Positions 12,598 to 30,400 of a stretch of DNA of 64,000 bases are shown here, one piece after another. This DNA comes from a virus. The notes under the pieces are model-generated. The model was not told where the DNA came from and ran no database searches. It saw only the letters and a list, made by a program, of their open reading frames with translations. Each line of letters opens with the position of its first letter. The first letter of the stretch is position 1. A program made the position numbers and the translations under genes. The stretch is from the IMG/VR virus record IMGVR_UViG_3300029113_000198; one strand, 5' to 3'.

Positions 12598-12727
12598 CGA
12601 AAACGCCCTGCGTGGGGCTGACAGCCGGGAAAGACCGGCGATATATGCCAAGGTGCTGCAAATGGGAGACAGGGCGAGCCCAAACCTCGCTGTGGAAACA
12701 CATGCGGTTTCGAATACCGTCCTTGGC
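12598..12727 (+). ncRNA. Candidate structured RNA element (GC-rich, nested and pseudoknot-like helices) upstream of the HNH gene
   Basis: ~130 nt at ~58% GC inside a 40% GC phage. Mutually complementary segments: CGAAAACGC(12598-12606)/GCGGTTTCG(12704-12712), GCCGG-gaaaga-CCGGC (12624-12639), GCCAAGG(12647-53)/CCTTGGC(12721-27), GCGAG-cccaaac-CTCGC (12674-90). No plausible ORF. Confidence 0.3.
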
Positions 12728-12759
12728 ACCAGATAATTTTATGAAGAAAGGATGATTGC

Positions 12760-13443
12760 ATGGTTAATAGGGCAGAAGATCATATTGGTGATGTCTTTGA
12801 TTTGTTTGAGGTGATTGATGTTATTCGAGATGAAAATAATATTCCATCTTACAAATGTCGATGTAAAGAATGTGGATGGACAGGGCTAAAAAATATAGCT
12901 CAGGCGAGAGCGGTTAAAGTGTGTCGGCATAAACAATCGAGTGGCGATTATAGAAATTTTTCTACACGGTGGAAAAACAAAAGAATCGGACGAATCTTTC
13001 ATGGAATGAAAGCAAGATGCTATGATGTTGATGATAAAAACTATATAACGTATGGCATGAAAGGAATTTGTGTTTATCAAGAATGGTTGGATAATCCAAA
13101 GTCATTTGAAGAGTGGTCGTTGAAAAATGGATACAAAGATAGTTTGACAATCGATAGAATTGATTCGACAAAAGATTACTGTCCTGATAATTGCAGATGG
13201 ATATCATTGGAAGATAATTCAAAATATAAATCCACAACTCGAATGTTAGAAGTAGATGGTGAAATACATACGGGACGTGATTGGGCGGCAGAATTAGGGC
13301 TTGGAACAAACACGATAAATAAATATGTAAGAAGATACGGAGAAGATAATACAAAACAATTTATAAGAAGAGTATTAAAGGACCCGGATAAAGTGAATTC
13401 TCGACAAGGGAAACAAACTATCTATAATCTTTACATGAACTAA
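12760..13443 (+). CDS. HNH homing endonuclease (free-standing, phage type)
   Basis: GMKARCYDVDDKNYITYGMKGICVYQEWLDNPKSFEEWSLKNGYKDSLTIDRIDSTKDYCPDNCRWISLEDNS is the classic HNH_3 block; Cys-rich N-terminus. Confidence 0.8.
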   Translation: MVNRAEDHIGDVFDLFEVIDVIRDENNIPSYKCRCKECGWTGLKNIAQARAVKVCRHKQSSGDYRNFSTRWKNKRIGRIFHGMKARCYDVDDKNYITYGMKGICVYQEWLDNPKSFEEWSLKNGYKDSLTIDRIDSTKDYCPDNCRWISLEDNSKYKSTTRMLEVDGEIHTGRDWAAELGLGTNTINKYVRRYGEDNTKQFIRRVLKDPDKVNSRQGKQTIYNLYMN

Positions 13444-13450
13444 ATTGAAA

Positions 13451-13490
13451 TGGCCCAGTGTAAAAACTGAGTACATTGGGCCAAATATTT
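13451..13490 (+). terminator. Rho-independent terminator after HNH gene
   Basis: TGGCCCAGTGTA-aaaactgag-TACATTGGGCCA (12-bp stem, one G-U) followed by AATATTTAT. Confidence 0.65.
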
Positions 13491-13496
13491 ATATGA

Positions 13497-13580
13497 GCAC
13501 CCGTGGTGAAATTGGCAACCACGATGGACTTAAAATCCATTCCCGGTAACGGGTTGCGAGTCCGAGTCTCGCCGGGTGCA
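13497..13580 (+). tRNA. tRNA-Leu (anticodon UAA), type II
   Basis: Manual cloverleaf: acceptor GCACCCG/CGGGTGC, anticodon arm ATGGA-CTTAAAA-TCCAT, variable arm CCCG-GTAA-CGGG, T arm GCGAG-TCCGAGT-CTCGC, discriminator A. Confidence 0.7.
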
Positions 13581-13585
13581 TATTT

Positions 13586-13661
13586 CTGGGCGTAGCGAAG
13601 TTGGCATCGCACCTGTTTTGGGAACAGGGGACCGCAAGTTCAAATCTTGTCGCTCAGACCA
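13586..13661 (+). tRNA. tRNA-Pro (anticodon UGG) with encoded CCA
   Basis: Acceptor CTGGGCG/CGCTCAG (C1:G72 as in bacterial tRNA-Pro), D arm GCGA-AGTTGGCA-TCGC, anticodon arm CCTGT-TTTGGGA-ACAGG, T loop TTCAAAT, then A-CCA. Confidence 0.7.
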
Positions 13662-13664
13662 CTA

Positions 13665-13751
13665 CGAGGATTCGCCAAGTTGGTAAGGCAGCGGAATTTG
13701 ACTCCGCCAGCGCTGAACAAGCGGTCACAGGTTCGAGTCCTGTATCCTCGG
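13665..13751 (+). tRNA. Unusual type-II tRNA: Ser-like body (long variable arm, G discriminator) with anticodon UUG
   Basis: Acceptor CGAGGAT/ATCCTCG perfect; D stem GCC/GGC (3 bp); anticodon arm GCGGA-ATTTGAC-TCCGC; 19-nt variable arm CAGCGCTGAACAAGCGGTC; T arm ACAGG-TTCGAGT-CCTGT; discriminator G. Confidence 0.5.
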
Positions 13752-13758
13752 CTTATAT

Positions 13759-13843
13759 GCGGGTATGGTGTAACTGGCAGCCACGTCAGATTTAGGATCT
13801 GATGCCGAAAGGCGTGAGGGATCGTGCCCCTCTACCCGTACCA
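13759..13843 (+). tRNA. tRNA-Leu (anticodon UAG), type II, with encoded CCA
   Basis: Acceptor GCGGGTA/TACCCGT (G1-U72), anticodon arm TCAGA-TTTAGGA-TCTGA, variable arm GCC-gaaa-GGC, T arm GAGGG-ATCGTGC-CCCTC (atypical T loop), A-CCA. Confidence 0.55.
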
Positions 13844-13942
13844 CGGTCATAGAATGGTTGCGTACCGTTTGTTGATCTCCTTTACTATTATTCCCAGCTC
13901 GCCAGTGATGGTGCAGTAGTGCTTTGTAAGCTGGGTGATTGT

Positions 13943-14018
13943 GCAGCTATGGTGTTAGTGGTTAGCACATCTGCCTTCCAAGCAGAGAGGGCGGGTTCGA
14001 GTCCCGTTGGTTGCTCCA
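13943..14018 (+). tRNA. tRNA-Gly (anticodon UCC) with encoded CCA
   Basis: Acceptor GCAGCTA/TGGTTGC (two G-U pairs), anticodon arm TCTGC-CTTCCAA-GCAGA, T arm GCGGG-TTCGAGT-CCCGT, T-CCA. Confidence 0.6.
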
Positions 14019-14207
14019 ATCTCGTATGGGTAGGATTTTTAGCGGTCAAATCCGGCTGCGCCTGTGCGAGATACCACCCCGAAAGGGGCGAGATATAGGA
14101 AATGTGCATCACTGTTATTCCTTCCTCGTCTATATGATATAGATGCAATAGTGTTTTATAAGGAAGGTGCCCAGTTGAATAGTTGCAGCTGTTTAACTGG
14201 TTTTTAT

Positions 14208-14284
14208 GGGATAGTAGCTCAGTTGGTCAGAGCTGGCGACTCATAACCGCTTGGTCGCGAGTTCAAATCTTGCCTGTCCCACCA
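14208..14284 (+). tRNA. tRNA with CAU anticodon (Met, or Ile2/lysidine type), encoded CCA
   Basis: GGGATAGTAGCTCAGTTGGTCAGAGC...GGCGACTCATAACCGCTTGGTCGCGAGTTCAAATCTTGCCTGTCCCACCA; anticodon-to-T-arm segment closely resembles E. coli ileX (GGCGACTCATAATCGCTTGGTCGC). Confidence 0.7.
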
Positions 14285-14321: not shown

Positions 14322-14993
14322 ATGGCGGATAAATATCTAAGCATTATTACAAATTTTGGGTGCCATTATAAGTGCCCAGAATGTATTGTTCGTAATAATA
14401 ATCTTAAAATGTCACCAACAGATGAACGTTCATCTTGGGGACGGTTAGAAAGTGTCCTTCAAAATATGCCTGACACAAATTGGGTTTCGGTTTCTGGTGG
14501 TGGAGATCCGCTGTTTCATTGGTGGGAACATCAGTTTTGGTGGAAAGGTTTCTTCCATATGTGTCAGCAAGAGAATAGAAAAACGGAATTACATACAAGT
14601 TATTACGATACCGCCTATAATTCTCAGATGCTAATGTTTCCGCTTTATATCTTTGATCGTGTTGTTTACCACTGCCATCATCCAGAAGATCTTGATGATG
14701 TTGGGCGAGTCGGAAGCGAAATCGTTCGTGTTGTTTTCGTTGTTGATGATAGTATGACAGAAGAAATTATCAATGACATTGCAAACTTTGTGAAAACGTC
14801 TGATCAGATTGACGAATTATCTTTTCGACAGAGAATCGATGACCATTATCAGCCGACCTATCATCTGCACGATTTTTTGAAGGCCGGTCATCAGAAGCGC
14901 TGGTGGTATATCGAGCAGTGTGATTACAACACCTACTATCATAACGGTGATTTGTTTACAAAGTACACTGATATCTTTGATAAGTACCAGTAA
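14322..14993 (+). CDS. Radical SAM enzyme (small, QueE/NrdG-size), directly downstream of tRNA cluster
   Basis: NFGCHYKCPEC = CX3CX2C 4Fe-4S motif at residues 14-21; VSVSGGGDPL = glycine-rich SAM-binding motif. 223 aa. Confidence 0.65.
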   Translation: MADKYLSIITNFGCHYKCPECIVRNNNLKMSPTDERSSWGRLESVLQNMPDTNWVSVSGGGDPLFHWWEHQFWWKGFFHMCQQENRKTELHTSYYDTAYNSQMLMFPLYIFDRVVYHCHHPEDLDDVGRVGSEIVRVVFVVDDSMTEEIINDIANFVKTSDQIDELSFRQRIDDHYQPTYHLHDFLKAGHQKRWWYIEQCDYNTYYHNGDLFTKYTDIFDKYQ

Positions 14994-15079
14994 ATAATTC
15001 ATCTAAATCTTTTGTTTTATAGGCGAATTGATAATATGACGTTGATACGTCTATTATTTTTCGCTTATTTTCTGAGATT

Positions 15080-15100
15080 TAGCTATATAACACAGGATAC
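15080..15100 (+). promoter_or_regulatory. Conserved phage motif copy c (TAGCTATATAACACAGGATAC)
   Basis: Immediately upstream of AAAAGGAGG RBS and the GTG 15118 start of the methyltransferase gene. Confidence 0.6.
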
Positions 15101-15117
15101 GAAAAGGAGGTGGTTTG

Positions 15118-16573
15118 GTGAAACATTATGGAAGTATTTGCGAGATTGATGGTTCTAAGATTGAACCTGTCTCGTGTATCACTGGTGGTTCACCTTGTTA
15201 GCCAAGATCTTTCTATTGCCGGTAAGCGGGCAGGTTTGGCTGGAGAACGGTCTGGTCTATTTATGGAAATGATTCGTGTGATAAAAGAAATGAGGGATAC
15301 CACCAATGGAGAATATCCAAAATTTGCAATCTGGGAAAATGTTAGAGGAGCACTCTCCTCAAACAACGGAGAAGACTTCCGATGTGTCTTGGAAGAATTT
15401 GCACACATCGTCGAAGCAGACGCTACAATTCCTAAACCTTCGGAAAAAGGTGGAAAATGGTCTAAATCCGGCGCAATTTCCGGTAATGGATGGTCTTTGG
15501 CATGGAGACTCTTCGATGCTCAATACTGGGGAGTGCCCCAACGTCGTCAAAGAATCGCGCTTGTCATTGATTTTGGAGGACAACGTGCCGCAAAGATATT
15601 ATTTGAGCGCACGGGCGTGCCAGGGAATTCTGACGAGAGCATCCCGACGTGGCAAGGCGCTGCCAGAATTGCTGAAAAATGCATTGTTGGAAATGATCGA
15701 GTGGTGGGAGAAAAAAGCTTTTGTATCGTCGGAAACATGATTGACAGAGAAACCAACATGAATGGGACTGGTGTAAAAGAAGATACTGCTTTCACTATAA
15801 ACACTATTGACCGTAATGCTGTTGCCTACACTTTAAAGATTCGTTCGGGATGCGAAGGCTGTGGCAAAGGCGCACTGGTACAGATCGAGAAGAGCGCAAC
15901 GCTTTCTACATTGCAAGATCAAACGTTAATTTGCTTGGCAGACAACACCTCTTTACATAATTCAAAACAAAAGATTTCCCCGGTGGTGTTTGAGAGCCAT
16001 AGTCAAGATGCTCGATACACCCAGCAAGGTAATACAAGTCCGGCTTGTACGGCTCAATGGGGAACTGGTGGCAATAATATGCCGCTTGTTGCCGAAAAGA
16101 AAGCCTTTGCAATGCAACGCATTGGTGAATACAAGGAAAGTGAACAAGCTAGTACGATGAAATCTCGTGACTACAAGGATGCTACTGGCTTGATTGCAGA
16201 GAAGGAAACGAAGAATCTGCAATGGATTGTTCGTCGTCTGACCCCCGTTGAGTGTGAGCGGCTGCAGGGTTTTCCGAGCGGATGGACTGATATTGGCGAG
16301 TGGGTTGATGAGAATGGTAAAAAGCACAAACCAGCTGATTCTCCTCGTTACAAAGCACTCGGAAACTCGATTGCGTTGCCGCAGTGGCACTGGATTTTCC
16401 AGAAAATGAAGCCGTATATCGGTGAGAATCCTACGCTTGGCAGTCTTTTCGATGGAATCGGTGGCTTTCCGCTTGTCTTTGAAAGTACGTATGGTGATGG
16501 TACTGCTATCTGGGGATCTGAAATTGATAGCTTTTGCGTTGCGGTAACTAAGAAGCATTTTCCAGAAGACTAA
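15118..16573 (+). pseudogene. Cytosine-5 DNA methyltransferase, apparently circularly permuted (motifs III-X then I-II) and requiring a +1 frameshift at the PCQ motif (pseudogene or recoded)
   Basis: GTG 15118 (7 nt after AAAAGGAGG) reads VKHYGSICEIDGSKIEPVSCITGGSPC then hits TAG at 15199. The +1 frame continues QDLSIAGKRAGLAGERSGLF (IV), FAIWENVRG (VI), GVPQRRQRIALV (VIII), RRLTPVECERLQGFPSGWT / ALGNSIALP (IX-X), then MKPYIGENPTLGSLFDGIGGFPLVFE (I) and AIWGSEIDSFCVAVTKKHFPED (II) before the stop. Confidence 0.55.
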
Positions 16574-16610
16574 ATCTCATAAAAGGCTAATTCAAATAAG
16601 AGGCGACACA

Positions 16611-16817
16611 ATGAACAACAAAATTTCTGTCAAAGCAACCATCGATCCCGGTTCTTTGAGTATTCCGGCAAGTCCTATCTTCCAAAAGGAAAAGAATACA
16701 TATCTTTGTCCGTTTTGTGTGACGAAGCTGGAGAAGTTCGAGCGTGAATGTTCTGATTGTCATCGCAAGATGGATTGGAGTAGGTTTACTGAAAAGAAGG
16801 AGGAGATGTTCACTTGA
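16611..16817 (+). CDS. Small zinc-ribbon protein
   Basis: CPFC...CSDC in 68 aa. Confidence 0.3.
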   Translation: MNNKISVKATIDPGSLSIPASPIFQKEKNTYLCPFCVTKLEKFERECSDCHRKMDWSRFTEKKEEMFT

Positions 16818-17475
16818 ATATAGATTTCTTCCAACGGCGCAAGACTCAGCTTGAGGATACTCTTCTTTTGAAAAATCAGGCGGTCGATATGCTTGATTAT
16901 CTAAAGACGCATTGTATCAATAGCGACCAGTATTGTACCATTCGGGATTACATTGAAGAAGCTGCTAAGATTCTGGAGAGTGACCTCGAATACGCAAACA
17001 ACAAGTTGCAATCCGCATTCAGACCTAAGTATGGTCGGAACAACAGACTGACTCGTGTTCAATCTAAAATGTTCCGTGATAGAGAATATTAAAAATGGGG
17101 TGATGCCGCTATGGTGATAAGTAAACATGTTTGTAACTGGTGTGGCAAGGAATATTCCAAGAATCCTTGTGGAGATACAATCTCTATGTATCACGAATTT
17201 GGTTATGAAAGCCCGATATGGGATGGTGCGAAGCTACAGTTCTCTTTGTGCCAGGAGTGCTCCGATAAGTTTGCAGGAGTACTCCGAGCGATGTTTACAT
17301 ACGATCCCATTGAAGATTCTCAGTGTTAACGACCCGAAGGGTTGTTAAATATAAGCCATCAATAAACCAGACGGAGGATAATACATAAAATGAATAGTGC
17401 ATGAATTGATTCAAGACAATAAAAAGAGACATAAGTGATTACAGATGAAACAAAATTACATAAAGGAGACTTGAT

Positions 17476-18647: not shown

Positions 18648-19796
18648 ATGGCTATGATTCGTAAAGCATCTGCTGTTCGTAAAAAGCTTCATATGCTGAT
18701 TTATGGTGAGCAGGGAACTGGTAAGTCTCGTACTGCAATGCAGTTGTGTTATCTGAAGAATGCAGACGGTAAGCCGTTCCGTGTTCTGTATCTGGATACC
18801 GAGAATGGTTCTATTGATAACTATACTGAGGAACTGGAAGCCAATGGTGTGAACCCTGACAATTTGCTGATTGTTTACACTCAGTCTCTGGCAGAAGTTC
18901 AGGATTATATCAAGATGGTTACCAACGATGAGGATATCGAGGATGAGAATGGTGATGCTTGTCTGGACGCAGATGGCAAGCCGTTCCGTGCAGATGCTCT
19001 GGTTGTTGACTCCGCATCCATTCTCAAAATGACAGCTACTCAGGGCCTCACCGCCTTCTCGCAGAAGCGTGCCAAGGTTAAGGCTGCATCTCAGGGTCTG
19101 ACTGGTGATGAAAAGGCAGTTAAGATTGAGGGTGCTGGGATGGAGCTCAAGGATTTCAATACCCTGAACTTCAAGGGCCAGTCTCTGATTTTGGATCTGA
19201 ATGCATCTGGCGTGAATTACATTGTTATCTGCCGTGAGAAGGATGAGAAACATACCAAGGTTGTGAATGGTTCTATTGTAAGTGAGCCGACTGGTCGCAA
19301 GATTCCTGATGGCTTTGCTGGTCAGGAGTACAACGTTGATACTGAGTTCCGCCTGTATTTTCAGGATGGTCAGCAGCTCGCTTTCTTCGATAAGGATCGT
19401 ACCGGTATGCATAAGGGCGGTGAGGTTGTTGAGGATCTGACCCTGCTTGAGTATCAGGATATTATTTCCAGCAGCGCAAAAAACCGAGAGAATGTCATCA
19501 AAAACGGCTTAAACGATGCTGTTAAGACTGAGGTTAAGCTGAGTATGCGTGACCTTGGTATCGAAAACGATGAGCCGGATGATGTTCCGGCAGATAAGAG
19601 TTCCGATAGTAAAGAGCCTTCTATGGATGACATCAAGGCAAAGCTGAATGACCTGATTGCTTCCGCTTCTCCCATGAAGAAGAGTGCCGCACAGAAGGCT
19701 GTTAAGGCGGCTGGCCTGTCTACCGCATTCCGTTCCATGACCGACATCGAGGAACTGAAGAAGGTTGCCGCAATTATGGAGAAGGAACTGGCTTAA
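18648..19796 (+). CDS. P-loop ATPase (AAA_24 / Sak4-like RecA-fold), putative recombination/replication accessory
   Basis: Walker A GEQGTGKS at residues 20-27, Walker-B-like LVVDSAS. 382 aa. Confidence 0.45.
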   Translation: MAMIRKASAVRKKLHMLIYGEQGTGKSRTAMQLCYLKNADGKPFRVLYLDTENGSIDNYTEELEANGVNPDNLLIVYTQSLAEVQDYIKMVTNDEDIEDENGDACLDADGKPFRADALVVDSASILKMTATQGLTAFSQKRAKVKAASQGLTGDEKAVKIEGAGMELKDFNTLNFKGQSLILDLNASGVNYIVICREKDEKHTKVVNGSIVSEPTGRKIPDGFAGQEYNVDTEFRLYFQDGQQLAFFDKDRTGMHKGGEVVEDLTLLEYQDIISSSAKNRENVIKNGLNDAVKTEVKLSMRDLGIENDEPDDVPADKSSDSKEPSMDDIKAKLNDLIASASPMKKSAAQKAVKAAGLSTAFRSMTDIEELKKVAAIMEKELA

Positions 19797-20488
19797 TGGA
19801 ACTTACCCGTAAATGCAAAATTTGCGGGAAGAACATTTTCATCGAGCGAGACCGTAGCACTTTTTTCTACGACAAGACTGGTTTTTACCATAAGGATTGT
19901 TTTGTAGAAAAAAAGAAAAATCAAAAACGCCCTTGGACAGATGACCTGCTAAGGGCATTTTTTGACAAAGTAAGTGACACTACGGACAAAAAGGTCGATG
20001 ATCTTCTTTCCAAAAAGAGAGAGCAGGACAAAAATCGTGAGCTTGCTCATATCAAACAGGAAGAGAAAAAGATTCTTTTCGACCATATTCGAGATACATA
20101 CGCCCCGGCGGTTGTTCCTGGTAGCTTCTACTCGAAACTTACGCAACTGATTTCCGGTAATTATTACAAATATAGAGGTTCGATTCCTCCGCTAGAACTT
20201 TACGATATGTGGGTTCTAGCGAAACCCCGACTAGATAAGATAATTGCCGAGAAAGAAGCAAAGGGTTGCGATATGAGCCAGCGATGGAATTACGACTTGG
20301 CTGTTTTATTGGCTCAATATCCTAGTTATCTCGAACGAAAAGAAAGACTAGCTTCGATTCGCAGTGAAAGCGAAGGCAAAACGAAGGAAAATTTGACTGA
20401 AACGGTACTGAAACGGATGAAAACAGTACCAAAACAGAGCAAAAACGAGAACGAAATTGATATAAATGCAATTCTCGATGAGATATAA
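19796..20488 (+). CDS. Hypothetical protein with N-terminal zinc finger
   Basis: CKICGKN...HKDCF at N-terminus; basic/charged middle. 230 aa. Confidence 0.35.
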   Translation: MELTRKCKICGKNIFIERDRSTFFYDKTGFYHKDCFVEKKKNQKRPWTDDLLRAFFDKVSDTTDKKVDDLLSKKREQDKNRELAHIKQEEKKILFDHIRDTYAPAVVPGSFYSKLTQLISGNYYKYRGSIPPLELYDMWVLAKPRLDKIIAEKEAKGCDMSQRWNYDLAVLLAQYPSYLERKERLASIRSESEGKTKENLTETVLKRMKTVPKQSKNENEIDINAILDEI

Positions 20489-20501
20489 AAGAGGTTGGTA
20501 A

Positions 20502-21717
20502 ATGGATAATACAGTTCATGACGCTCAAAGATTGAAGGAGCTTCAGGCACTCCCTCTTGAGCGAAAGATTCAAATCACTCAAAATCGCATCCAGGAATGG
20601 TATATGCACTATGATGGTGGTGTGTACGTCAGCTTCTCCGGCGGTAAGGATTCTACTGTACTTGCTCATTTGACAAAGCAGCTGTTCCCAGATGTCCCGC
20701 TTGTGTTTAGTAATACAGGCTTGGAATACTCGTCAATCCAGAAATTTGCACGAAACGCAGATGCTGTTTTTGTTTATCCCAAGATGGGATTTAGTGATGT
20801 GGTCTCTACATATGGTTATCCTCTTATCTCTAAAGAAGTGGCTGAAGCGATTTACTACGCTAGACGAATCAGAAATAGCGGCGCAGCCACCATGAGAGAG
20901 AGAGAGAGTAAGAACAACTCTCAGGAAAAGACAAGAACTTCTGGGTTTAAGGACGAACTGTCTGGGAGGTGTCTTTAGCAACCCGTGGCTTTACGATGAA
21001 ACAGGAGTTTTTCAAGGAAACAGACGGACGATTCTACTTGGTAATGAACCGGGAGCTGAAATGAAGGCCGGAACAAAATCCATGTTCAATAAGGAAAAAT
21101 GGTTGCCAGCAGCACAAGAACTTCCGTTTGCAATTTCTCATTACTGCTGTTCAGTTATGAAAAAAGGTCCGATGAAGAAATATGCAAGGGCAACCAAGCG
21201 TAAACCTATTATTGGAACGTTGACTGATGAAAGTCGTGTTCGCAAGCAAGCTTGGATTCGACATGGGTGTAATGCTTTTGATAGCAAGTCTCCAACAAGT
21301 CAGCCTATGAGTTTTTGGACTGAGCAGAACGTGCTCACTTTCATCAAACAGTCAGAAATTCAAATTGCAGATGTCTATGGCGATATTGTTCCTACGAGTG
21401 ATAAGCCGGATGCGCCATTGTGTTGTACTGGGTGTGATCGTACCGGATGCACGTTTTGTGGATTTGGAGCTCACAACAAGAACGATAATAGATTCCTGAC
21501 ACTTGCCGAACTTGACCCAAAGAAGTACGAGTATAGTATGAACGGCGGTCAATGGGTAGACAATCCAAAATATGATGCTACTGCACCTGAGTATGACGGA
21601 GTTTGGAAGAACTGGAACCCGAAGAAAATTTGGGTGCCCAGCAAAGAAGGTCTTGGACTGAGAAAAGTTTTCGATATGTTCAATGAACTGTACCCAAACA
21701 ACAAAATTCAATATTAA
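20502..21717 (+). pseudogene. PAPS-reductase-family (PP-loop, DUF3440-type) protein split by a frameshift inside a (GA)n tract
   Basis: N-part (20502-20978) has the SFSGGKDSTV PP-loop. The next frame is open from 20896 and runs into the 21061-21717 ORF, which carries a Cys cluster CCTGCDRTGCTFCG. The two frames switch at GAGAGAGAGAGAGAG (20894-20908). Confidence 0.55.
20894..20908 (+). repeat. (GA)7.5 dinucleotide microsatellite inside coding sequence
   Basis: Direct reading: catGAGAGAGAGAGAGAGta. Confidence 0.9.
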
Positions 21718-21740
21718 AAAATATAAAGGGAGGTGGATGA

Positions 21741-23264
21741 GTGGAACTCATTTCAAATATCCCGAACGAAATTCTATTTGTTGGCGCAATTTACAAACAT
21801 CCTGACTATTTGGTCGAGTATGGGCACTATGTCAAGAGCAAGTACGATTTTGCTGATGAAGCAACAAAATTTTTCTACGATGCAGCGTTAATTATTTACG
21901 AAACTCGGACTCAAGAATTTAATAAAACGTCTGTTTTAACGTTTATGGCTGAAGACGAGTCCAGATTGTCCCAATACAAGCGGCTGAAGGGCTGGTCAAC
22001 CATTGAATACTACATGAGCCTTGCGAATGACGATGACATCAAGGGATACTTCAATATCCTGAAGAAATATTCTCTACTTCGTGAGTATCAGAGAAACGGA
22101 TTTAACATTGAAGGAATCTTGAAGCATCGACAGTTTGAAATGTTTGGTGCTCAGGACATTTACAAATTGATTCGTGGCAAGGCCGACAAGATCAATACGG
22201 TTATTATCACAAACGATGATGCTGAGATTTTGAATAATGGTCTGCTGCCAATGGTCAATGAACGTTTGAGTGTTCCTGATATGGGCTTGCCGTTCCAGTA
22301 TCCTATCATGAATGATTTGTTCCGAGGATTGAAGCTGGGCACTGTGATGTTCAATGGTATGCCATCTAACGCTGGCAAGACTAGATACATGATGGCGATT
22401 GTTGCCTACGTTACATTGGTTCAAAAGCAGAAAGCTCTTCTGCTGCTGAATGAGATGGATCTTGAGTCAGTCCGGTATTGCTTACTGGTCACCGCCATCA
22501 ATAATCCTGAGTTTCAAGAGTTGCATGGTCATCGTTTCCATAAGGACGAGCGAGAAATCACCCTTGGAATGTACCGGGACGCGAATGGAAATTTTATCTT
22601 CAGAAAACAAAACGAAGACGGAGAATACATAGAAAGTATTGACGAGTTCACCGCTCGTGTCTACGAGGAAAGCGAAGAGTATCGCAATGTTCTTGATGTT
22701 TGCCAGTGGATTGAGAGCGAATCACAAGGCTTGATTATCGCAAAGGATGTTTCTGCTGATTATAGTGATAAGTCCCTGCGATTTGAAATCCAAAAGGCAG
22801 CTCTCACTCAGGGAGTTAAGTATGTGTTTTACGATACTCTAAAGAACGACATTGCATCGATTGGTGAATGGGCAGCATTCAAGGTTACAGCTACCGAGCT
22901 TGAAGAGATTGCGAAAAATCTAAAGATCTTTATCTACGGTAGTATCCAGTTGGCCGAAAATGCCCATGAGTATCTTCCTGATGAGCTGAACTCAAACAAC
23001 ATTGCTGAGTCAAAAATGATTAAGCACGTTGCTTGGACGATGGTTCTGTTCAAGGAGATTCCAAAAGATAAGTTCGCGAAGTATCAATACATCTCTCACG
23101 ACCCTGAGTGGGGCGGCGACTGTGCCCATCAGCTGAATCCAGATAAGCGGTATTACGTTGGAAACATCGATAAAAACCGTTTTGGTGAGAAAAAGAAAAT
23201 CATGTTTGAAGTGAATTTGAACCAGAATGTCTGGAAAGAGGTCGGTGTCTGCACCAGAAAGTAA
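21741..23264 (+). CDS. DnaB-like replicative DNA helicase
   Basis: N-terminal DnaB-N-like region (ILFVGAIYKHPDYL), RecA-fold with Walker A GMPSNAGKTRYMMAIV, Walker-B-like VFYDTL. 507 aa. Confidence 0.65.
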   Translation: MELISNIPNEILFVGAIYKHPDYLVEYGHYVKSKYDFADEATKFFYDAALIIYETRTQEFNKTSVLTFMAEDESRLSQYKRLKGWSTIEYYMSLANDDDIKGYFNILKKYSLLREYQRNGFNIEGILKHRQFEMFGAQDIYKLIRGKADKINTVIITNDDAEILNNGLLPMVNERLSVPDMGLPFQYPIMNDLFRGLKLGTVMFNGMPSNAGKTRYMMAIVAYVTLVQKQKALLLLNEMDLESVRYCLLVTAINNPEFQELHGHRFHKDEREITLGMYRDANGNFIFRKQNEDGEYIESIDEFTARVYEESEEYRNVLDVCQWIESESQGLIIAKDVSADYSDKSLRFEIQKAALTQGVKYVFYDTLKNDIASIGEWAAFKVTATELEEIAKNLKIFIYGSIQLAENAHEYLPDELNSNNIAESKMIKHVAWTMVLFKEIPKDKFAKYQYISHDPEWGGDCAHQLNPDKRYYVGNIDKNRFGEKKKIMFEVNLNQNVWKEVGVCTRK

Positions 23265-23273
23265 GGAACTATA

Positions 23274-24296
23274 ATGGTAAATATCGCAGATCTGAAAAAT
23301 TACATTCTTGAAGAACAGCAGATTGAACCGATTCTGGAGGAACTTGGTTGTCATCATATCAGTCACAAAACTGGTTATTACCAGTGTGCAAATCCAGATG
23401 GTGACAATAGAACGGCACTCTGTATTTACGAGAATGAAAATCTTACTGCGGTAGATTACACACGAGATATTGCCAATGGAAAGACCAGTTATGATTTGAT
23501 TTCTGTCGTCCAGTTCTTTCTGGAACTGTCTTTCCCAAAAGCTATTAAGCAAATCTGCGAATGGGTTGGACTTGACTACTATCACAACTTCGAGGAAGAT
23601 CTTCCTAAAAGTATGTTGATTCTAAAAGAGCTCATTGCCATGCAAAATGAAGATGAAGAACACGAGGATGACCGTCCGATAGTCCCCATCTCCGAAGCCA
23701 TCCTCGGTTATTACAAACCTTATGTGAACCGGATTTTTGCTGACGATGGGATATCTTACGAGACGCAGCAGGAATTCGAGATTGGCTTTGATGAATTGAC
23801 AAATAGAATCACGATTCCAATCAGAGATGAAATTGGCACTCTAGTTGGTGTAAAGGGAAGATACTTTGGCAAGCCGCCTGAAGGCGAGATGAAGTACAAG
23901 TATATTGAGCCGTGTGCCAGAAACCGTATTCTGTATGGCCTGTATAAGACAGAGCCGTATATTAAGAATGAAGGTCTGGTATATGTTGGTGAAGCTGAAA
24001 AATCTGTCATGCAAATGTGGGATATGGATGTCTGTAATTGCGTGGCGACCGGCGGCAAGAAGGTTTCACAGAATCAAATCGAAATTTTAACACGTCTTTG
24101 CGTTGATATTTGTTTTGTCTTTGATAAAGACGTTCAGCTTAGTGAGCTTATGGTTCTCGCCAATCGATTTGTCGATGGCGTAAGTGTGTATGCTGTAGTA
24201 GATGATAAAGGGATTCTGGATGAAAAGGAAGCCCCGACTGATAATCCTGAAAAATTTAAGGCATTGATTGAGAACTGTGTTAGGAGAATTAAATGA
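23274..24296 (+). CDS. DNA primase (DnaG-like: zinc-binding domain + TOPRIM)
   Basis: CHH...C...C zinc motif (CHHISHKTGYYQCANPDGDNRTALC); TOPRIM-like VYVGEAEKSVM...VATGGKKVS...VFDKD. Confidence 0.65.
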   Translation: MVNIADLKNYILEEQQIEPILEELGCHHISHKTGYYQCANPDGDNRTALCIYENENLTAVDYTRDIANGKTSYDLISVVQFFLELSFPKAIKQICEWVGLDYYHNFEEDLPKSMLILKELIAMQNEDEEHEDDRPIVPISEAILGYYKPYVNRIFADDGISYETQQEFEIGFDELTNRITIPIRDEIGTLVGVKGRYFGKPPEGEMKYKYIEPCARNRILYGLYKTEPYIKNEGLVYVGEAEKSVMQMWDMDVCNCVATGGKKVSQNQIEILTRLCVDICFVFDKDVQLSELMVLANRFVDGVSVYAVVDDKGILDEKEAPTDNPEKFKALIENCVRRIK

Positions 24297-26017
24297 ATGT
24301 AAAACTCTGGAAGGGGAGTAGGAACGACCTATCAGACCCGATTGGAACGATTATGGAGAATAGAGGGGTTGAGGATTATAAGACCTACATGAACCTAGAT
24401 GATTCTTGTCTGAATTCTCCGTGGGAACTGGACAACATGGAAGATGCTGTCAGGCTGTTGAACAAACATATCTGGAATAAGTCTATTATCTCTATCCTTG
24501 TAGATTGTGATGTGGATGGATTTACAAGTGCTTCAATGATGTTTCAGTATTTGAAGACGATTGGTTATTTTGGAAAAATCAATGTTCTGCATCATGGTGG
24601 CAAGGAGCATGGGCTCTCTAAAGAAATTGAGGTTCCACCTGAAACTACCTTGCTGATTATTCCTGATGCTGGCAGCAACGATGTTGAACAGTGTAAGGAA
24701 CTCCGCGAAAATGACATTGATATTTTGATTCTTGACCATCATATCTGTGATAGAGAGAATCCTTACGCAGTAATCGTCAACAACCAGAACGGTACATATC
24801 CTAATAAGGAATTGTCTGGCGCTGGCGTGGTGTATAAGTTCCTTCAGGCTGTTGATGAATATAATTGGACTGATGTTGCAGACAGGTATCTTGATCTGGT
24901 GGCTGTCGGAAACATCGGCGATGTTATGGATATGCACTCGCATGAGACAAAGCGCCTTTGTACGAAAGGTCTGGCACGAATTGTAAATCCGATGATTTGT
25001 GCTTTAGTTGAGGCGAATAGTTTCAACATCAAGGGAGACCCGACCATCAATGATGTTCAGTTTTACATCGTTCCGATGATGAACGCACTGATTCGTGTTG
25101 GCTCATCCGAGCAAAAGAAACGGATGTTCCGTGCAATGGTCGGTGAAGAGCAGACTTTCCAGTACACTCCGACTCGTGGCAAGAATGCCGGTGTTACGAT
25201 TGACGAGACTCTGGCGCAGCATGTAGCTCGTGAGTGTTCGTCTTGCAAGTATCAGCAAAACAAGACCAAAGACAAGGCTGTCGCAGAGCTTCAGGAACTG
25301 ATTGAAAAGCACAATGCAGATCAGAATAAGATTCTCTTCTGCAACTCCACTGGCATTCTTGACAACACTCTGACTGGTGTTGTGGCAATCAAGCTGGCTG
25401 AAATGTATGCAAAACCGTGCGTACTGCTTCGTACATTCACTGATGAACCGGATTATTACGGTGGCTCAATGAGAAATCCTGACGGTTCTCCGATTGAAAG
25501 TTTAAAGGAGTTCTTGATGAGTACCGGAGATTTTGAGTCAGTTCTTGGTCATGATAATGCTGCTGGTGTGAAAATCAAGAAAGAAAATGTACCAAAGGCG
25601 ATTGCGGATTGCAATGAGCTGCTTAAAGACGTCACGATGAGTAAGGCAATCGTAGTTGATTTTGATTTTGACTATAGTAGGCTGACTGTTGCATTGCCGA
25701 AGACCATGTATGAAATGCATAAAATCTGGGCACAGGGTATTTCCGAGCCGTATTTCTACATTAGAAATATTCCGTTAGCTCATAGTGGATGTGCTCCGAT
25801 GGGCAAGAACGGCAATATGTGGAAGTATTCTGATGAAGAAAAAGGCATTGATTTTGTGTGCTTTGCTGATAATGGCCGGATGATTGGCTGGATCAACAAT
25901 GACTTCTATGGTGGTCAGGAAGAAAAATATATCAATGCTGTGTGTCGGTTGTCTTTAAACCAGTACGGAAACAAGGTGACTCCGCAAGCACAGATTGTTG
26001 ATTTTGAGGTGATTTGA
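24293..26017 (+). CDS. DHH-family phosphoesterase (RecJ-like ssDNA exonuclease)
   Basis: DHH motifs: ILVDCDVDGFTSASM, IIPDAGSND, ILILDHH, SGAGVVYKF. 574 aa. Confidence 0.7.
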   Translation: MNVKLWKGSRNDLSDPIGTIMENRGVEDYKTYMNLDDSCLNSPWELDNMEDAVRLLNKHIWNKSIISILVDCDVDGFTSASMMFQYLKTIGYFGKINVLHHGGKEHGLSKEIEVPPETTLLIIPDAGSNDVEQCKELRENDIDILILDHHICDRENPYAVIVNNQNGTYPNKELSGAGVVYKFLQAVDEYNWTDVADRYLDLVAVGNIGDVMDMHSHETKRLCTKGLARIVNPMICALVEANSFNIKGDPTINDVQFYIVPMMNALIRVGSSEQKKRMFRAMVGEEQTFQYTPTRGKNAGVTIDETLAQHVARECSSCKYQQNKTKDKAVAELQELIEKHNADQNKILFCNSTGILDNTLTGVVAIKLAEMYAKPCVLLRTFTDEPDYYGGSMRNPDGSPIESLKEFLMSTGDFESVLGHDNAAGVKIKKENVPKAIADCNELLKDVTMSKAIVVDFDFDYSRLTVALPKTMYEMHKIWAQGISEPYFYIRNIPLAHSGCAPMGKNGNMWKYSDEEKGIDFVCFADNGRMIGWINNDFYGGQEEKYINAVCRLSLNQYGNKVTPQAQIVDFEVI

Positions 26018-26018
26018 T

Positions 26019-26375
26019 ATGGGAAATTGGAAACGTGCTATCGCCATCGACTTTGATGGCACTCTCTGTGAGAATAATTATCCTGATATCGGTGAGCCAA
26101 ACTGGAATGTCATTTACCAAGCAATTCAGGAACAGAAGCACGGTGCTGGTCTGATTCTCTGGACTTGCCGGGAGGGAAAGCTTCTGTATGATGCAATGGA
26201 GGCTTGTTTTGATTGGGGCATTCAGTTTGATGCCATCAATGATAGTCTGCCGGAGTGGAAAGAGCATTTTGGCACTGCTCCTAGAAAGGTTGGGGCTGAT
26301 GAATATTGGGATGATAAGGCTAAGGTTGTAAAAAATGGAGAGTTGATTGATAATGACTACTGTTGGACAACTTGA
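26019..26375 (+). CDS. Small HAD-like hydrolase (DxDGT motif)
   Basis: AIAIDFDGTL at residues 8-17. 118 aa. Confidence 0.35.
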   Translation: MGNWKRAIAIDFDGTLCENNYPDIGEPNWNVIYQAIQEQKHGAGLILWTCREGKLLYDAMEACFDWGIQFDAINDSLPEWKEHFGTAPRKVGADEYWDDKAKVVKNGELIDNDYCWTT

Positions 26376-26529
26376 AACAGCAATCCGTGATTTTATTGAA
26401 GAATGCAAAAAACAAAGTGATTCTGAGTGGCCGTGTTTACAGTGTCCCTATGAACATTTTTGCGACAGATTAAGGTTTCCGTTTGATATTCTTCCAAGCG
26501 AATGGGTGATTGACGATGCTAACTCCTGA
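26347..26529 (+). CDS. Small Cys-containing protein (paralog 1)
   Basis: DFIEECK...CLQCPYEHFCDR; paralogous to next ORF. Confidence 0.35.
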   Translation: MIMTTVGQLETAIRDFIEECKKQSDSEWPCLQCPYEHFCDRLRFPFDILPSEWVIDDANS

Positions 26530-26701
26530 ACAGTTTGAGGCTGACGTTAAAGAATTTATTGCAGAATGCCAGAGCCATCCGGTGCTTGATTTGTCAAAAG
26601 ATGATCCATGCGAAGGGTGTCGCTTTGAGGATTTTTGCGATAGATTCTATACGGGTGATGGTAGCACATGGCATTGGCGAGTTTATGAGAGGGGTGAATG
26701 A
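26510..26701 (+). CDS. Small Cys-containing protein (paralog 2)
   Basis: EFIAECQ...CEGCRFEDFCDR; tandem paralog. Confidence 0.35.
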   Translation: MTMLTPEQFEADVKEFIAECQSHPVLDLSKDDPCEGCRFEDFCDRFYTGDGSTWHWRVYERGE

Positions 26702-27463
26702 ATGGTTTACATTACAGGCGATATTCATGGCGACTTTAATCGTCTCTTAAAGATAAATAAATTTTGCATTAAACATAGGCTTGGAAAGAACGACTGGATC
26801 ATCTGTCTTGGTGATGTTGGTCTAAACTATTATGGCAAGGATAACATCAACGAATGGAGAGTTAAGACCATTGCTACGGACATCCCTGCGAATTTATTCT
26901 GTATTCATGGAAATCACGAACGCCGCCCGTCTCGTAAGGATGGCTATAAGACAAAGGAAATCAGTGGAGATATTTGCGGTAAAGTGTGGCATGACCCACA
27001 TTATCCCAATCAGTATTTTGCTATTGATGGCGAGGTTTATCAGATTATTGCTGATAGGGAAATTCTGAACTGTCTTGTTTGCGGCGGAGCCTATTCTGTA
27101 GATAAATATTATCGGTTGGAGAGTGGGTGGCATTGGTTTCCTGATGAGCAGCCAAGTGAAAAAATAAAAAAGAAGGTTGCAGAAGTTGTAAGAAACCAAA
27201 CGATTGACGTGATGCTTACGCATACATGTCCGACGAGTTATGTACCAACCGAACTATTTCTCGATGGTGTTGATCAGAGTACGGTTGACAATTCTACTGA
27301 ACGATTTTTCGAAGATATTCTCGGTCGTTTTAGGTACAATGAAATTTTTGGATGGAACACACCATTCTGGTATTTCGGTCACTTCCACGGAAATAAATAC
27401 ACTGATGACTATGTGATGCTTTTCGACGATATTATTAAGTTTGGAGATAAGAGGAAGGAGTAA
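26702..27463 (+). CDS. Calcineurin-like metallophosphoesterase
   Basis: GDIHGD, GDVGLNY, GNHE metallophosphatase motifs. 253 aa. Confidence 0.7.
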   Translation: MVYITGDIHGDFNRLLKINKFCIKHRLGKNDWIICLGDVGLNYYGKDNINEWRVKTIATDIPANLFCIHGNHERRPSRKDGYKTKEISGDICGKVWHDPHYPNQYFAIDGEVYQIIADREILNCLVCGGAYSVDKYYRLESGWHWFPDEQPSEKIKKKVAEVVRNQTIDVMLTHTCPTSYVPTELFLDGVDQSTVDNSTERFFEDILGRFRYNEIFGWNTPFWYFGHFHGNKYTDDYVMLFDDIIKFGDKRKE

Positions 27464-27465
27464 GA

Positions 27466-30400
27466 ATGTCAAGTAGTTTACACACGCACTCGAATTACAG
27501 TCTGCTAGATGGGTACTCTTCTCCTGAAGAAAATCTAAAAAGAGCATCAGAACTTGGTTTGAAGGCCGTTGCTATTACGGAGCATGGTGAGGTGACAAGC
27601 TGGCCGTACTACTCAGAACTAAAAGACAAGTATCCTAGCGTAAAACTTCTTTATGGTATTGAGGCATACGAGTGCGAGGACAGGGAAGTAAAGGACAAGA
27701 ACAGTAAATACTGGCACCTAATTATCATCGCAAAGAATGAGGCTGGCCGTCAGGCTGTTAATCGCTTGTCTACACTCGGTCATCTTCATGGCTTTTATAG
27801 CCGTCCTCGTATCACAAAAGAGGATATCGCTAAGGAAGATACAAATAATTTGATTATCCTGTCTGCTTGTTTGGCAAGTAGGCTATCCAAAACGGATGAT
27901 TATGACACTTGTGTCAAGCTGGTTCAAGAGTATAAGAATTTGTTTCCTCACTATTATCTTGAGGTTCAGGCTCACGCAAACAGTGAACAAGCAAAATATA
28001 ATCAGAAAATCATGCGGTTGGCAAACGACACTCATACAAAAGTAGTCGTCACAAACGATGTTCATGCTGCTACCAAAGAGGATCTTTATTATCAAGACTA
28101 TTTCCTTCGTATCGCACATGATACGGAAACTGCCGCAGAAATCTATGAAGGATGTTATTTCATGTCTCGTAAAGAGCAACATGAAGTTCTTGATAGTCAG
28201 ATTGGGTATGATGCAGCAGAATGGTGTATCAACAATACCGACGAGGTTGCCGACCTGTGTGATTATGTGGATATGCCTTGGCACGAACCTGAGCTTCCAA
28301 AGATTGAGATTCCGCCACAGTATTCCAACTCAGCAGCTTACCTGAAAGACCTTGTAAAAGAGGGATGGAAGAAGCGCGGTATTGAAAAGTTTGATGTAGA
28401 AAAACAGAAAATCTATCACAAACGTGTTGATGACGAGTTGTTTGTTATTGAGAAGAAAGACTTCTGTGACTATTTTTTGATTCTGGTTGATTACATCAAC
28501 TGGTGTAAGAAAAATGATGTTATTGTTGGCCCTGGGCGTGGTTCTGCTGCCGGCTCACTTGTGTGTTACCTGATTGGTATTACACAACTTGACTCCATCA
28601 AATATGAGCTTGATTTCGGACGATTCCTTACCATTGAACGAAAAGACCTTCCTGACGTTGACGTGGACGTCAGCGACCGTGCTAAGGTTGTCGAGTATCT
28701 GACGCAGAAGTACGGTGAAGACCGAGTGGTTCAAGTCATGAATATTGTGTACACCACTCCGGTTACCTCAATTCAGGATGTTGGTAAGGTACTAGGCTTC
28801 CCGTATGCTGAGATTAGAAAAATCAGCGAAAAGTTTGTTCAAAAAACATGGAAGGATTGTCTTGAAGCAAATCCAGAAGTGGCTGAGAATCCGAGATACA
28901 AAGAACTGCTTGATATTGCAAGTCATATCAATGGTCACCCACGAGGATATGGTATCCATGCTGGCGGTGTTATTGTTTGCCGACATCCTTATTACGAGTA
29001 TATCGGTATCCGGCATGGTACTGACGGAGAGCACGTTATTTCCGTTGATAAGGTGATGGACGAGAAGATTGGACTTGTTAAGTTTGATATTCTTGGTGTT
29101 GCGTCGCTGGTTGCCATTGATGAAGCGAAGCGTGAGGATAATATTCCAGACTGGGAAATTGATATCAACAATCCTGAGTTTGAGAACGACAAGGCAACTT
29201 ACGATTTGATTTGCTCCGGTAAGACAGACAATCTATTCCAGATTGAATCGTCCGGCATGAAGGATCTGGTTGCGCAACTTCAGCCTAGGTCGATTGAAGA
29301 GTTGTCTGCTCTGATTGCTCTTTATCGTCCTGATGCAATGCCGTCGATTCCTACATACGTTGATTGCAAGTATCATCCTGAACATATTCATTACTTTCAT
29401 CCTGATATGGAACCAATTTTCCGCAGTACCTATGGCGTGAACATCTATCAGGAACAGAGTATGAAGCTCACAAAGGTCTTTGGCGGTCGAAACGACGCCG
29501 GTGCTGACAGAATGCGTAAATGCTTGGCAAAGAAAAAGCCTGAGAAAGTCAAGGAAGAAGTCGAGCTTCTTCATGATGAGATTATTGCAAATGGATACGA
29601 CAAAGCGACCGCTGAGTACATTTGCAACGAGTTGTCAACGAAGGGCGGCTATGGTTTCAACGCCAGCCATTCTCAGGCATATGCTGTCATCTGCCTTCAA
29701 ACGGCATACTTAAAAGCACATCATCCACTTGCATTCTTTAAGGCTATGTTGAACCTGAATAAAGCAAAGGTTGGCAAGGTCAACAAGATTATGGTGGACG
29801 CACGCAGCTTTGATATTCAGACTCTTCCGCCGAGTATCAATCGTTCCGGCATGGACTTTACTGTATCGAATGGTAAAATCCTGTTTGGCTTATCTGCTAT
29901 CGGTGGTATTGGCGATACGCTTGCTGAAACTATCATTGCAGAACGAGATAGAAATGGAAAATTTAAGGGACTTGATGATTTCACGAATCGTGTCCGTGCA
30001 ACGAAGGCGCAGATCATTGCGCTGGTCAAGTCCGGTGCGATTCCTACGAAGAACAAACGAGTATTCTTGGAAAAGTACATTACCAGCGGTCTGGAACAAT
30101 CTGAGTTTAAGCCAGTCAGTACACTTCCTACCAAGGCAGTTTTGCTGAGTAAGTGGGGTATTGATACAGAGCATTATAAGGTTGGTAAGAAGGTTGATAA
30201 AGAAACCGTCTTGCGGATCTATAATGAAAAGCGCCGTGTCGTACATGAAACCGATAAGCTGAAAAAGAAAGAAGCGTATATGGCCGAGCAGACCACGAAA
30301 TATCTACAAGATGAAGAACTTTGGGAGTTCCAGACTTTGCAGACCTTTATCAGTGACCCGAATCCTTTCGAGAAGGCATTTGCTTATATCAAGGATTTCT

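Follow-up and report, generated by a model that had tools for sequence, protein, structure and literature searches.

Can a DNA methyltransferase gene that carries a stop codon and one additional base directly behind its catalytic cysteine codon still give rise to an enzyme? This question is raised by a 64,000-nucleotide stretch of viral DNA, IMG/VR record IMGVR_UViG_3300029113_000198 (hereafter called the window), in which a gene for a DNA methyltransferase of the cytosine-5 type (C5-MTase) lies at positions 15080-16573. The original prediction had described this gene as circularly permuted and as broken at its catalytic PCQ motif by a +1 frameshift, so that it would either depend on a shift like that of prfB or be a fresh pseudogene. 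The second possibility had to be rejected, because the same TAG plus one base (TAGN) is present in 85 deeply diverged alleles under purifying selection. We regard functional recoding at UGU-UAG-N as the probable explanation, with a rough probability of 0.55.

The region 14800-16900 of the window was read base by base. The predicted GTG start codon was confirmed at 15118, 7 nucleotides (nt) after AAAAGGAGG. An extended Shine-Dalgarno (SD) sequence, AAGGAGGTGGT, is located at 15104-15114 (+) and belongs to the initiation region common to all TAGN alleles. GTG and the following 26 codons (15118-15198, +; termed the N-piece) encode VKHYGSICEIDGSKIEPVSCITGGSPC, which spans the region of motif III plus the part of motif IV that ends in the catalytic cysteine and aligns to residues 59-81 of M.HhaI. 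These 27 codons are followed by TAG at 15199-15201 (+) and a lone extra C at 15202, the base that would be skipped. As predicted, the gene continues in the +1 frame, which is open from 15203 to the native C-terminus (methyltransferase body, 15203-16573, +). The body was delimited by its motifs and by its matches to PF00145 and M.HhaI. It starts with QDLSIAGKRAG, and QDLSIAGKRAGLAGERSGLF constitutes the rest of motif IV (15203-15262). WENV (motif VI, 15329-15352), QRRQR (motif VIII, 15530-15565), a long variable or target-recognition region (about 15566-16228), RRLTPVECERLQGFP (motif IX, 16229-16288), and GNS (motif X, 16349-16381) follow in the same frame. Behind GNS, a linker of 12 residues (16400-16435) leads to LGSLFDGIGGF (motif I, 16436-16474), SEID (motif II, 16508-16534), and KKHFPED before the stop codon TAA at 16571-16573; MKPYIGENPTLGSLFDGIGGF is situated between GNS and SEID. 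The full set of C5-MTase motifs is therefore present (LFDGIGGF, SEID, SPC and QDLS on either side of the interruption, WENV, QRRQR, RRLTPVECERLQGFP, and GNS), with PCQ being contiguous only once the site is recoded.

The identity of the gene product was assessed by a hidden Markov model search with the +1-corrected protein. The C5-MTase profile PF00145 was matched with E = 2e-36 for the protein as encoded and with E = 1e-40 once it was de-permuted. As encoded, residues 3-94 matched profile positions 46-131; when the C-terminal 55 residues were moved to the front, profile positions 4-131 were matched in one stretch. The de-permuted, frame-corrected protein also gave an unbroken alignment with residues 16-136 of M.HhaI (E = 1e-13), and M.HaeIII, M.MpeI, and DNMT3A chains were matched as well. 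At the junction, HFPED joined to VKHYGSI lies seamlessly opposite NFGE--KPEGDI of M.HhaI, in agreement with the proposal that the two termini close into a circle. As these alignments are continuous only after de-permutation, the predicted order, motifs III to X followed by I and II with the break between II and III, was borne out. An arrangement of this kind would place the strands that bind S-adenosylmethionine last, after motifs III, IV through X and the linker. By sequence criteria, the gene is assigned to a large phage C5-MTase family that is naturally permuted between motifs II and III.

The interruption proved to be widespread among the relatives of the gene. After de-duplication, the matches listed comprised 85 distinct TAGN alleles and 72 distinct uninterrupted (intact) alleles. 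In the phage group to which the window belongs, GGTGGTTCACCTTGT-TAGC-CAAGA was found exactly in 33 of 81 genes, the remaining 48 being uninterrupted; in a second group of phages of ~25-45 kb, TAGN was present in 7 of 80. We scanned viral contigs for any 0-9 nt between TGT and CAAGA and obtained TAGC (44), TAGA (3), and TAGT (2) only, together with three matches without an insert, all of them unrelated conventional methylases. A codon-degenerate scan of viral contigs (CCN TGY TAG N CAR GAY YTN TC) returned at least 120 cases of TAG-N, and the equivalent pattern with TAA-N or TGA-N gave no match in all viral contigs. The fourth base was A in 56, C in 27, T in 2, and G in none of the 85 TAGN alleles. 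Many different phages carry the element, and both its genomic surroundings and the N-terminal peptide ahead of it differ greatly among them. Searches of bacterial genomes for it yielded two metagenome-assembled genome contigs only, and among GenBank phages it occurred solely in uncultured fecal contigs.

Conservation is concentrated on the interruption itself. The five codons GGT GGT TCA CCT TGT form a cassette with the following TAG C (15184-15202, +). Their third positions had entropies of 0.3, 0.4, 0.2, 0.2, and 0.0 bit in TAGN alleles, compared with 1.1, 1.3, 2.0, 1.5, and 0.8 bit for the same codons of intact alleles. In codons 2-22 of TAGN alleles the third-position entropy was 1.0-1.9 bit, and in the first codons past the insertion it was 0.9-1.9 bit. 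Thus, hardly any variation is seen in the 15 nt that precede TAG, with saturated synonymous sites on either side. This conservation is one-sided, covering the stop codon and what lies 5' of it, a pattern that points to a signal read by the ribosome rather than to a gene-conversion patch or a neutral lesion. The N-pieces ahead of the cassette are diverse, with 44 nucleotide haplotypes encoding 32 peptides and a mean pairwise difference of 21 of 66 nt. None of them is common to intact alleles, the nearest of which is at least 11 of these 66 nt away. All TAGN alleles start with GTG (85/85), and all have the initiation region GGAGGTGRT-N3-4-G-GTG irrespective of the DNA that precedes it; in intact alleles this region is heterogeneous, and they start with ATG (44), CTG (21), or GTG (6).

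Other stop codons are found at the same place. In three members of the permuted family (L312, L314, and L315, the latter identical to L234), an in-frame TAG replaces the Gln codon of PCQ, which means that UAG recurs at that position. L439 has an in-frame TGA between Cys and Gln, with the same GGTGGTTCACCTTGC context ahead of it. This TGA is the sole 3-nt insertion, and no insertion of a sense codon between Cys and Gln was detected in any viral contig.

Analysis of the TAGN alleles with RNAalifold revealed a small hairpin within the cassette, GGUG-GUU-CACC (15184-15194, +; 4 bp), with one compensatory variant; it was the sole conserved structure, and no conserved stem-loop or pseudoknot was found 3' of the cassette in these alleles. 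The 7-mer at the GTG start (AGGTGAA; TGGTGAA in the window, 15116-15122) is complementary to TTCACCT of the cassette (15189-15195). At least six of the seven pairs are possible in 49 of 52 unique modules, with few compensatory changes (L161, L172, L180), and the window module folds with SD sequence, start, and cassette paired (z = -2.0). This pairing hints at a further layer of control in the mRNA, which may be a switch connected with the recoding site. As a separate observation, ACCUUGUUA of the cassette (window 15191-15199) is the exact complement of UAACAAGGU, which we take to be positions 1498-1506 of 16S rRNA (Escherichia coli numbering) in the decoding center; a chance match of 9 nt, with a probability of roughly 0.06, is not negligible.

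Both pieces of the gene carry the signature of purifying selection. In its own frame, the N-piece of TAGN alleles showed a synonymous polymorphism (pS) of 0.75 and a nonsynonymous polymorphism (pN) of 0.23, and the resulting pN/pS of 0.31 is close to the 0.29 of intact alleles; the other two frames gave 1.2-1.4. For the first 20 codons past the cassette, read in the +1 frame, pN/pS was 0.17 in TAGN and 0.16 in intact alleles. Across both pieces, wrong-frame values were 1.2-2.5. Recent polymorphism gave a similar picture: one TAGN cluster with a divergence of up to 3% had an N/S ratio of 0.39 (31 synonymous and 12 nonsynonymous changes), intact clusters had 0.37, and the neutral expectation is about 2.5-3. 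The relaxed selection that marks a pseudogene was thus not observed, pN/pS being like that of intact alleles on both sides of the lesion, and the lesion is itself constrained in sequence. The state of the cassette was also related to that of the gene. Drifted cassettes lay in genes broken elsewhere in seven of seven cases, and canonical cassettes occurred in 50 complete and 38 broken genes (p = 0.004); L213, one complete gene with a drifted cassette, is an exception to this pattern. In a subclade of TAGN alleles, a restart of the form TAA-AAGGAGGG-N6-TTG lies in the same frame in the variable region and is conserved across diverged members (L055, L058, L059, L060, and L072), arguing for continued selection for expression. 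The split at this site suggests a two-polypeptide version of the enzyme in relatives of the L055 type.

Comparison of closely related genomes showed that the 5' end of the gene is a swappable module. Relative to L001, which has the same backbone and an intact allele, the identity of the window is ~90% as far as 15105, drops to 60-83% in 15106-15300, and reaches 100% from 15315 onward. The mosaic module of the window (15106-15300, +), delimited by this profile, contains the initiation region, the N-piece, the cassette, and ~100 nt more. In a second pair, L231 (TAGN) and L230 (intact), the upstream DNA is unrelated and the bodies are 100% identical from ~25 nt past the insertion. Modules of both types therefore recombine in the same phage lineages. 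Intact alleles of the group to which the window belongs (L001, L021-L051, and others) appear to start at CTG, 8 nt past AGGAGG. They also contain an out-of-frame ATG 1 nt past the SD sequence and an in-frame TGA two codons upstream of CTG, and the weak CTG start, which is unusual and conserved, leads gene callers to pick a later ATG (e.g. P0032, MSQAGKR...). TAGN and intact types both look built for low expression.

How might the TAGN alleles be decoded? The strong extended SD sequence and GTG would drive translation of 27 codons ending in the Cys codon UGU, behind which the ribosome would encounter UAG and one base. Most ribosomes would terminate here, and full-length enzyme would arise only when a ribosome paused at a weak UAG, read by release factor 1 (RF1), resumed in the +1 frame at CAR. 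In this way the cassette would serve as an attenuator within the gene itself and hold methylase output down. A competition between termination and an alternative event fits the use of UAG only, a stop read by RF1 only, the lack of G as fourth base, the invariant UGU with its G·U wobble to tRNA-Cys, and the invariant CCU. A and C are the weakest fourth-base contexts of UAG in E. coli. Two routes can be envisaged. In a Ty3-like +1 shift without re-pairing, AGN would be decoded and PC(S/R)QDLS produced. Alternatively, a near-cognate tRNA-Gln might read UAG and re-pair on the cognate CAR 4 nt downstream, a route that would yield native PCQDLS and account for the requirement for UAG as the stop. 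We know of no described natural example of take-off from a stop codon decoded by a near-cognate tRNA.

A different way to restore PCQ would be a genetic code in which TAG is a sense codon for Gln (code 15), such that TGT TAG is read as Cys-Gln. The three family members with TAG at the Gln codon are in line with this, and several conventional-order methylases in apparently recoded phages likewise have an in-frame TAG instead of the Gln codon. However, reading TAG as Gln leaves the frame off by one base, and frame 0 stops after 7 codons. Moreover, the phages use the standard genetic code. Long open reading frames (ORFs) on the coding strand of the window end in TAA (30), TGA (10), or TAG (1), and none on that strand is split by TAG. 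At 75 TAGN loci (0.9 Mb), splitting of ORFs by TAG is rarer than by TGA or TAA, and 9% of the long ORFs end in TAG. A suppressor tRNA or CUA anticodon was not found in the window, where the tRNA cluster (12647-14284) holds genes for Leu, Pro, Gln(UUG), Gly, and Met; inspection of 12.4-15.3 kb with ARAGORN and Rfam disclosed no odd tRNA-like element. On the basis of TAG use and tRNAs, reassignment was ruled out for the window and the 75 TAGN loci, and as an account of the cassette it is highly improbable. An error of sequencing or assembly, or a mutation that arose recently in this one genome, has in its favor the bare presence of a frameshift and nothing more. The identical 481-residue +1 ORF and identical DNA recur in many independent assemblies and samples (JGI, ENA, Logan), and the same lesion is seen in 85 diverged alleles; we give these explanations practically no credence.

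The TAGN module could also be an inactive allele of the methylase, a null that is kept by balancing selection and shuffled onto functional bodies and at which no recoding takes place; methylation-dependent restriction, which attacks methylated DNA in some hosts, would be an example of a driver. Module swapping as seen for the window and L001 and for L231 and L230 with their identical bodies, the coexistence of TAGN and intact alleles in the same phage groups (33/81 and 7/80), and the larger number of additional breaks in TAGN alleles all agree with such a scheme, and the family has other on/off devices in the form of poly-G tracts and of stop codons that lie in frame at this codon or beside it. 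A null, however, needs no set sequence, yet only TAG is seen as the stop, with neither TAA nor TGA, and G never as the fourth base. Nor would a null call for 15 upstream nt that are frozen at synonymous sites while the rest varies, or for N-pieces private to TAGN alleles (nearest intact at least 11/66 nt away) that have a pN/pS of 0.31 at saturated pS. The seven drifted cassettes in broken genes, with the complete L213 as exception, are likewise at odds with it, and we consider an inactive allele rather unlikely. A further alternative is a split enzyme: the 27-residue peptide would be released at TAG, re-initiation would occur at the +1-frame GUG that arises from GGU-GGU, 14 nt upstream of the stop, so that the body begins with MVHLV(S/R)QDLS, and the two chains would assemble non-covalently. 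Split C5-MTases such as M.AquI and M.EcoHK31I exist. Fragment complementation of C5-MTases has been described (PMC5944983), and the family tolerates a split with its own ribosome-binding site and TTG in the variable region. The frozen third positions of the cassette are the second positions of +1 GUG GUU CAC CUU GUU, so that dual coding could explain their conservation. On the other hand, no SD sequence precedes the +1 GUG, and efficient termination favors strong stop contexts, whereas G and T are avoided at the fourth position here. In addition, the nucleophilic cysteine would become a free C-terminus, and six foreign residues would be added to the catalytic loop. A split at the cassette is accordingly improbable in our view.

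Functional recoding has to be judged against several findings that weigh on the other side. At the P site, +1 re-pairing is not possible, tRNA-Cys (GCA) on UGU being non-cognate for GUU. The SD-like GGUGGU ends 6 nt before UGU, not 3, and intact alleles have a stronger GGAGG at its place. The site lacks a conserved 3' stimulatory structure, a plain +1 shift adds Ser or Arg, depending on the allele, right after the catalytic Cys, and no in-frame relative has a sense-codon insertion there. The integrity of the genes was compared in allele sets that were both sampled by DNA pattern. TAGN alleles were complete in 37 cases, broken at a poly-G site in 13, and broken elsewhere in 25; the corresponding numbers for intact alleles were 55, 7, and 14. 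TAGN alleles were thus otherwise interrupted in 51% and intact alleles in 28% of cases (p = 0.005), and this excess suggests weaker constraint on TAGN alleles. The excess is moderate and is compatible with a weakly expressed gene under weaker constraint or with some lineages heading to loss. Many of the breaks are poly-G tract variants common to TAGN and intact alleles. A stronger contrast, with 57 of 112 TAGN and 4 of 111 intact alleles broken, was dropped because the intact set had been biased by fetching it through full-length protein similarity. All TAGN alleles may stem from one module recombining onto functional bodies, in which case part of the selection seen downstream could be borrowed from intact alleles. 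Two AlphaFold2 runs, with 14 and 59 sequences, gave a predicted local distance difference test score of 30 and 41 and were confident solely at residues 20-160; the permuted fold is supported by sequence alone. The cassette is unlike known bacterial +1 sites.

The permutation turned out to be a trait of the family as a whole. The permuted order was observed in all of more than 200 relatives, uninterrupted genes included. The block of motifs I and II was C-terminal in all of the best 120 database homologs, and it occupied the same place in 80 viral loci from phages of ~110-140 kb and in 80 more from phages of ~25-45 kb. A further protein search identified at least 120 full-length uninterrupted members, the named ones being annotated as DNA (cytosine-5)-methyltransferase 1. 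In one of these uninterrupted relatives, P0104, residue 4 onward aligns to M.HaeIII from residue 48 and to M.HhaI from residue 59. The permuted gene is also present in two cultured phages of Faecalibacterium, FP_Toutatis and Lelie, where it starts with ATG and has an intact PCQ. An intermediate of the proposed tandem-duplication route, with motifs I and II at both ends, was not seen among the family alleles. Among ten permutation topologies engineered for M.MpeI and M.SssI, much the highest activity was found for constructs whose N-terminus lies between motifs II and III (Type B), and these were as active as the wild type (Slaska-Kiss et al. 2018, PMC5944983). In the REBASE survey of that study, M.BssHII-like enzymes (Type H) were the only permuted C5-MTases in nature, and Type B was absent (PMC5944983). 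We found no later literature report of a natural Type B permutant. With its start between motifs II and III throughout, the family of the window gene is a natural and abundant Type B family. The original prediction had set the gene apart from M.BssHII-type permutants, and rightly so, as the N-terminus of the latter lies in the variable region.

Another frame of the methylase body appears to be used as well. An ORF of 144 residues, termed ORF-X (15306-15740, +), overlaps the body in the +1 frame of the latter and extends over motifs VI-VIII. Over the stretch that begins at ENV and ends 30 codons beyond motif VIII, no stop was present in this frame in 224 of 224 unique alleles, and the remaining frame averaged 5.2 stops. 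In its C-terminal half (..SRLSLILEDNVPQRYYLSARACQGILTRASRRGKALPELLKNAL..), ORF-X shows higher conservation than the methylase frame that it overlaps. ORF-X was matched by 669 database proteins, and searches of Pfam, PHROGs, and NCBIfam assigned it to no family. ORF-X appears to be a real overlapping gene. UUG in the cassette was rejected as its start, because in 81 of 85 alleles the frame in question runs into a stop after 7-32 codons.

The length of a poly-G tract located between motifs VI and VIII varies among FP_Toutatis (L440, NC_047915, 6463-7874), Lelie (L441, PP479942), and P0104. In FP_Toutatis it joins motifs III-VI to the C-terminal half of ORF-X, in Lelie it joins the N-terminal half of ORF-X to VIII-X and I-II, and in P0104 it gives the full methylase. 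The tract looks like a three-state phase-variable switch between the overlapping frames. A second recurrent break, found in TAGN and intact alleles alike, consists of an extra G in GGGGGG-CTG-TGA-C, ~180-200 codons past the Cys codon (e.g. L155, L159, L168, L319, and L353); the protein stops after ...RIRGGL and continues with DGGGKGALVQ in the +1 frame. The sequence resembles prfB in being G-rich and in its NUG UGA C, and the break is likely caused by the hypermutable G tract. Taken together, weak starts, a recoding stop, poly-G tracts, and an overlapping ORF would indicate layered control of methylase dosage, which is relevant to phages facing both methylation-sensitive and methylation-dependent restriction by their hosts.

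Several observations concern the surroundings of the gene. The methylase gene is a target for mobile elements: among its relatives, P0100 has an intein at the ENV motif (PF14890), P0108 has an in-frame insertion of HNH/AP2 type in motif IX, and L172, L208, and L225 have insertions after ENV. Immediately upstream, relatives carry a free-standing NUMOD4/HNH_3 endonuclease gene (L227, 2224-2700); a polynucleotide kinase/RNA ligase gene also has an upstream position in relatives. In the window, an ORF upstream of the tRNA cluster (12760-13443, +; 227 residues) looks HNH-like by eye and has no Pfam match. One tRNA of 88 nt (13665-13752, +) combines a UUG (Gln) anticodon with a class II long variable arm and discriminator G. 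Features of this kind characterize tRNAs for Ser or Leu, the synthetases of which disregard the anticodon, and this tRNA might therefore insert another amino acid at CAA/CAG. The context of the window is that of a replication module (18648-30681, +) from a phage about 130 kb in size, with genes for an AAA_24 ATPase (18648-19796, +), a RecJ-like DHH nuclease (24293-26017, +), and a DnaE-type DNA polymerase III alpha subunit (27466-30681, +).

Among known recoding sites, CUU UGA C of prfB, the gene for RF2 (PMC5009743), invites the closest comparison. Both sites have an in-frame stop at the point of the shift and a continuation in +1, and they share a weak stop context, an upstream SD-like G-rich element, and nucleotide conservation 5' of the stop. 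To this extent the site resembles the prfB-like shift of the original prediction, but it departs from prfB in the P-site codon, which re-pairs in prfB and cannot do so as UGU, and in the SD-like spacing of 3 nt in prfB and 6 nt here. The stops also differ, UGA in prfB and the RF1-read UAG in the cassette, and the methylase, unlike prfB, has no autoregulatory logic. No UAG/RF1 counterpart of prfB is known, and no DNA methyltransferase case is listed among recoded genes (Atkins et al. 2016, PMC5009743); a literature search for frameshifted or recoded phage C5-MTases likewise found no report. By analogy, the cassette would work like a "shifty stop" or a short hop, and it should not be filed as a prfB-type site. 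Bypassing in T4 gene 60 and in short E. coli hops (PMC5009743) similarly involves a UAG directly after the last decoded codon and a small 5' hairpin. In the cassette, UAG and the downstream CAR are near-matching for tRNA-Gln and 4-nt re-pairing would give PCQDLS; the gap is 4 nt here and 50 in T4 gene 60. If decoded, UGU-UAG-N would be a UAG-dependent recoding signal that current +1 rules do not predict, with a bearing on how frame is kept at stop codons. Annotation would be affected as well: gene callers at present output a truncated "methyltransferase" without its Cys for hundreds of gut-phage genomes.

The gene has further parallels among phase-variable and overlapping methyltransferases. 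Like phasevarion methyltransferases, relatives have G6-G9 tracts that vary in length between otherwise identical genes and switch the frame; the window allele lacks one, and its interruption does not consist of a repeat. In M.EcoHK31I, the alpha gene also contains, in a different frame, the coding sequence of the beta polypeptide. The window gene likewise appears to encode a second protein in another frame of a C5-MTase gene, but ORF-X overlaps motifs VI-VIII instead of the variable region and lacks motif IX. The most inclusive proposal reads UGU-UAG-N as a programmed recoding signal, the first UAG/RF1-dependent one in bacteria or phages, which lies outside slippery-site rules, possibly uses a 4-nt hop of tRNA-Gln, and gates a Type B methylase in a gene whose N-piece, body, and ORF-X take up all three frames and whose poly-G switches make chimeras in relatives. 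Taken as a whole, this is tentative, its chances being slightly short of even. As to topology, M.Alw26I, M2.Eco31I, M.Esp3I, and M2.BsaI of the M.BssHII type (Type H) are natural circular permutants of the same fold as well. They have motifs IX-X ahead of I-VIII, whereas in the phage family motifs I-II alone have shifted to the C-terminus. The engineered Type B enzymes (PMC5944983) share the topology of the phage family but are laboratory constructs; the gut-phage family is natural and abundant and has a large, multi-module variable region. The topology that engineers found most active, and did not find in nature, now has a natural example, and the cultured Faecalibacterium phages FP_Toutatis and Lelie offer a place to test it.

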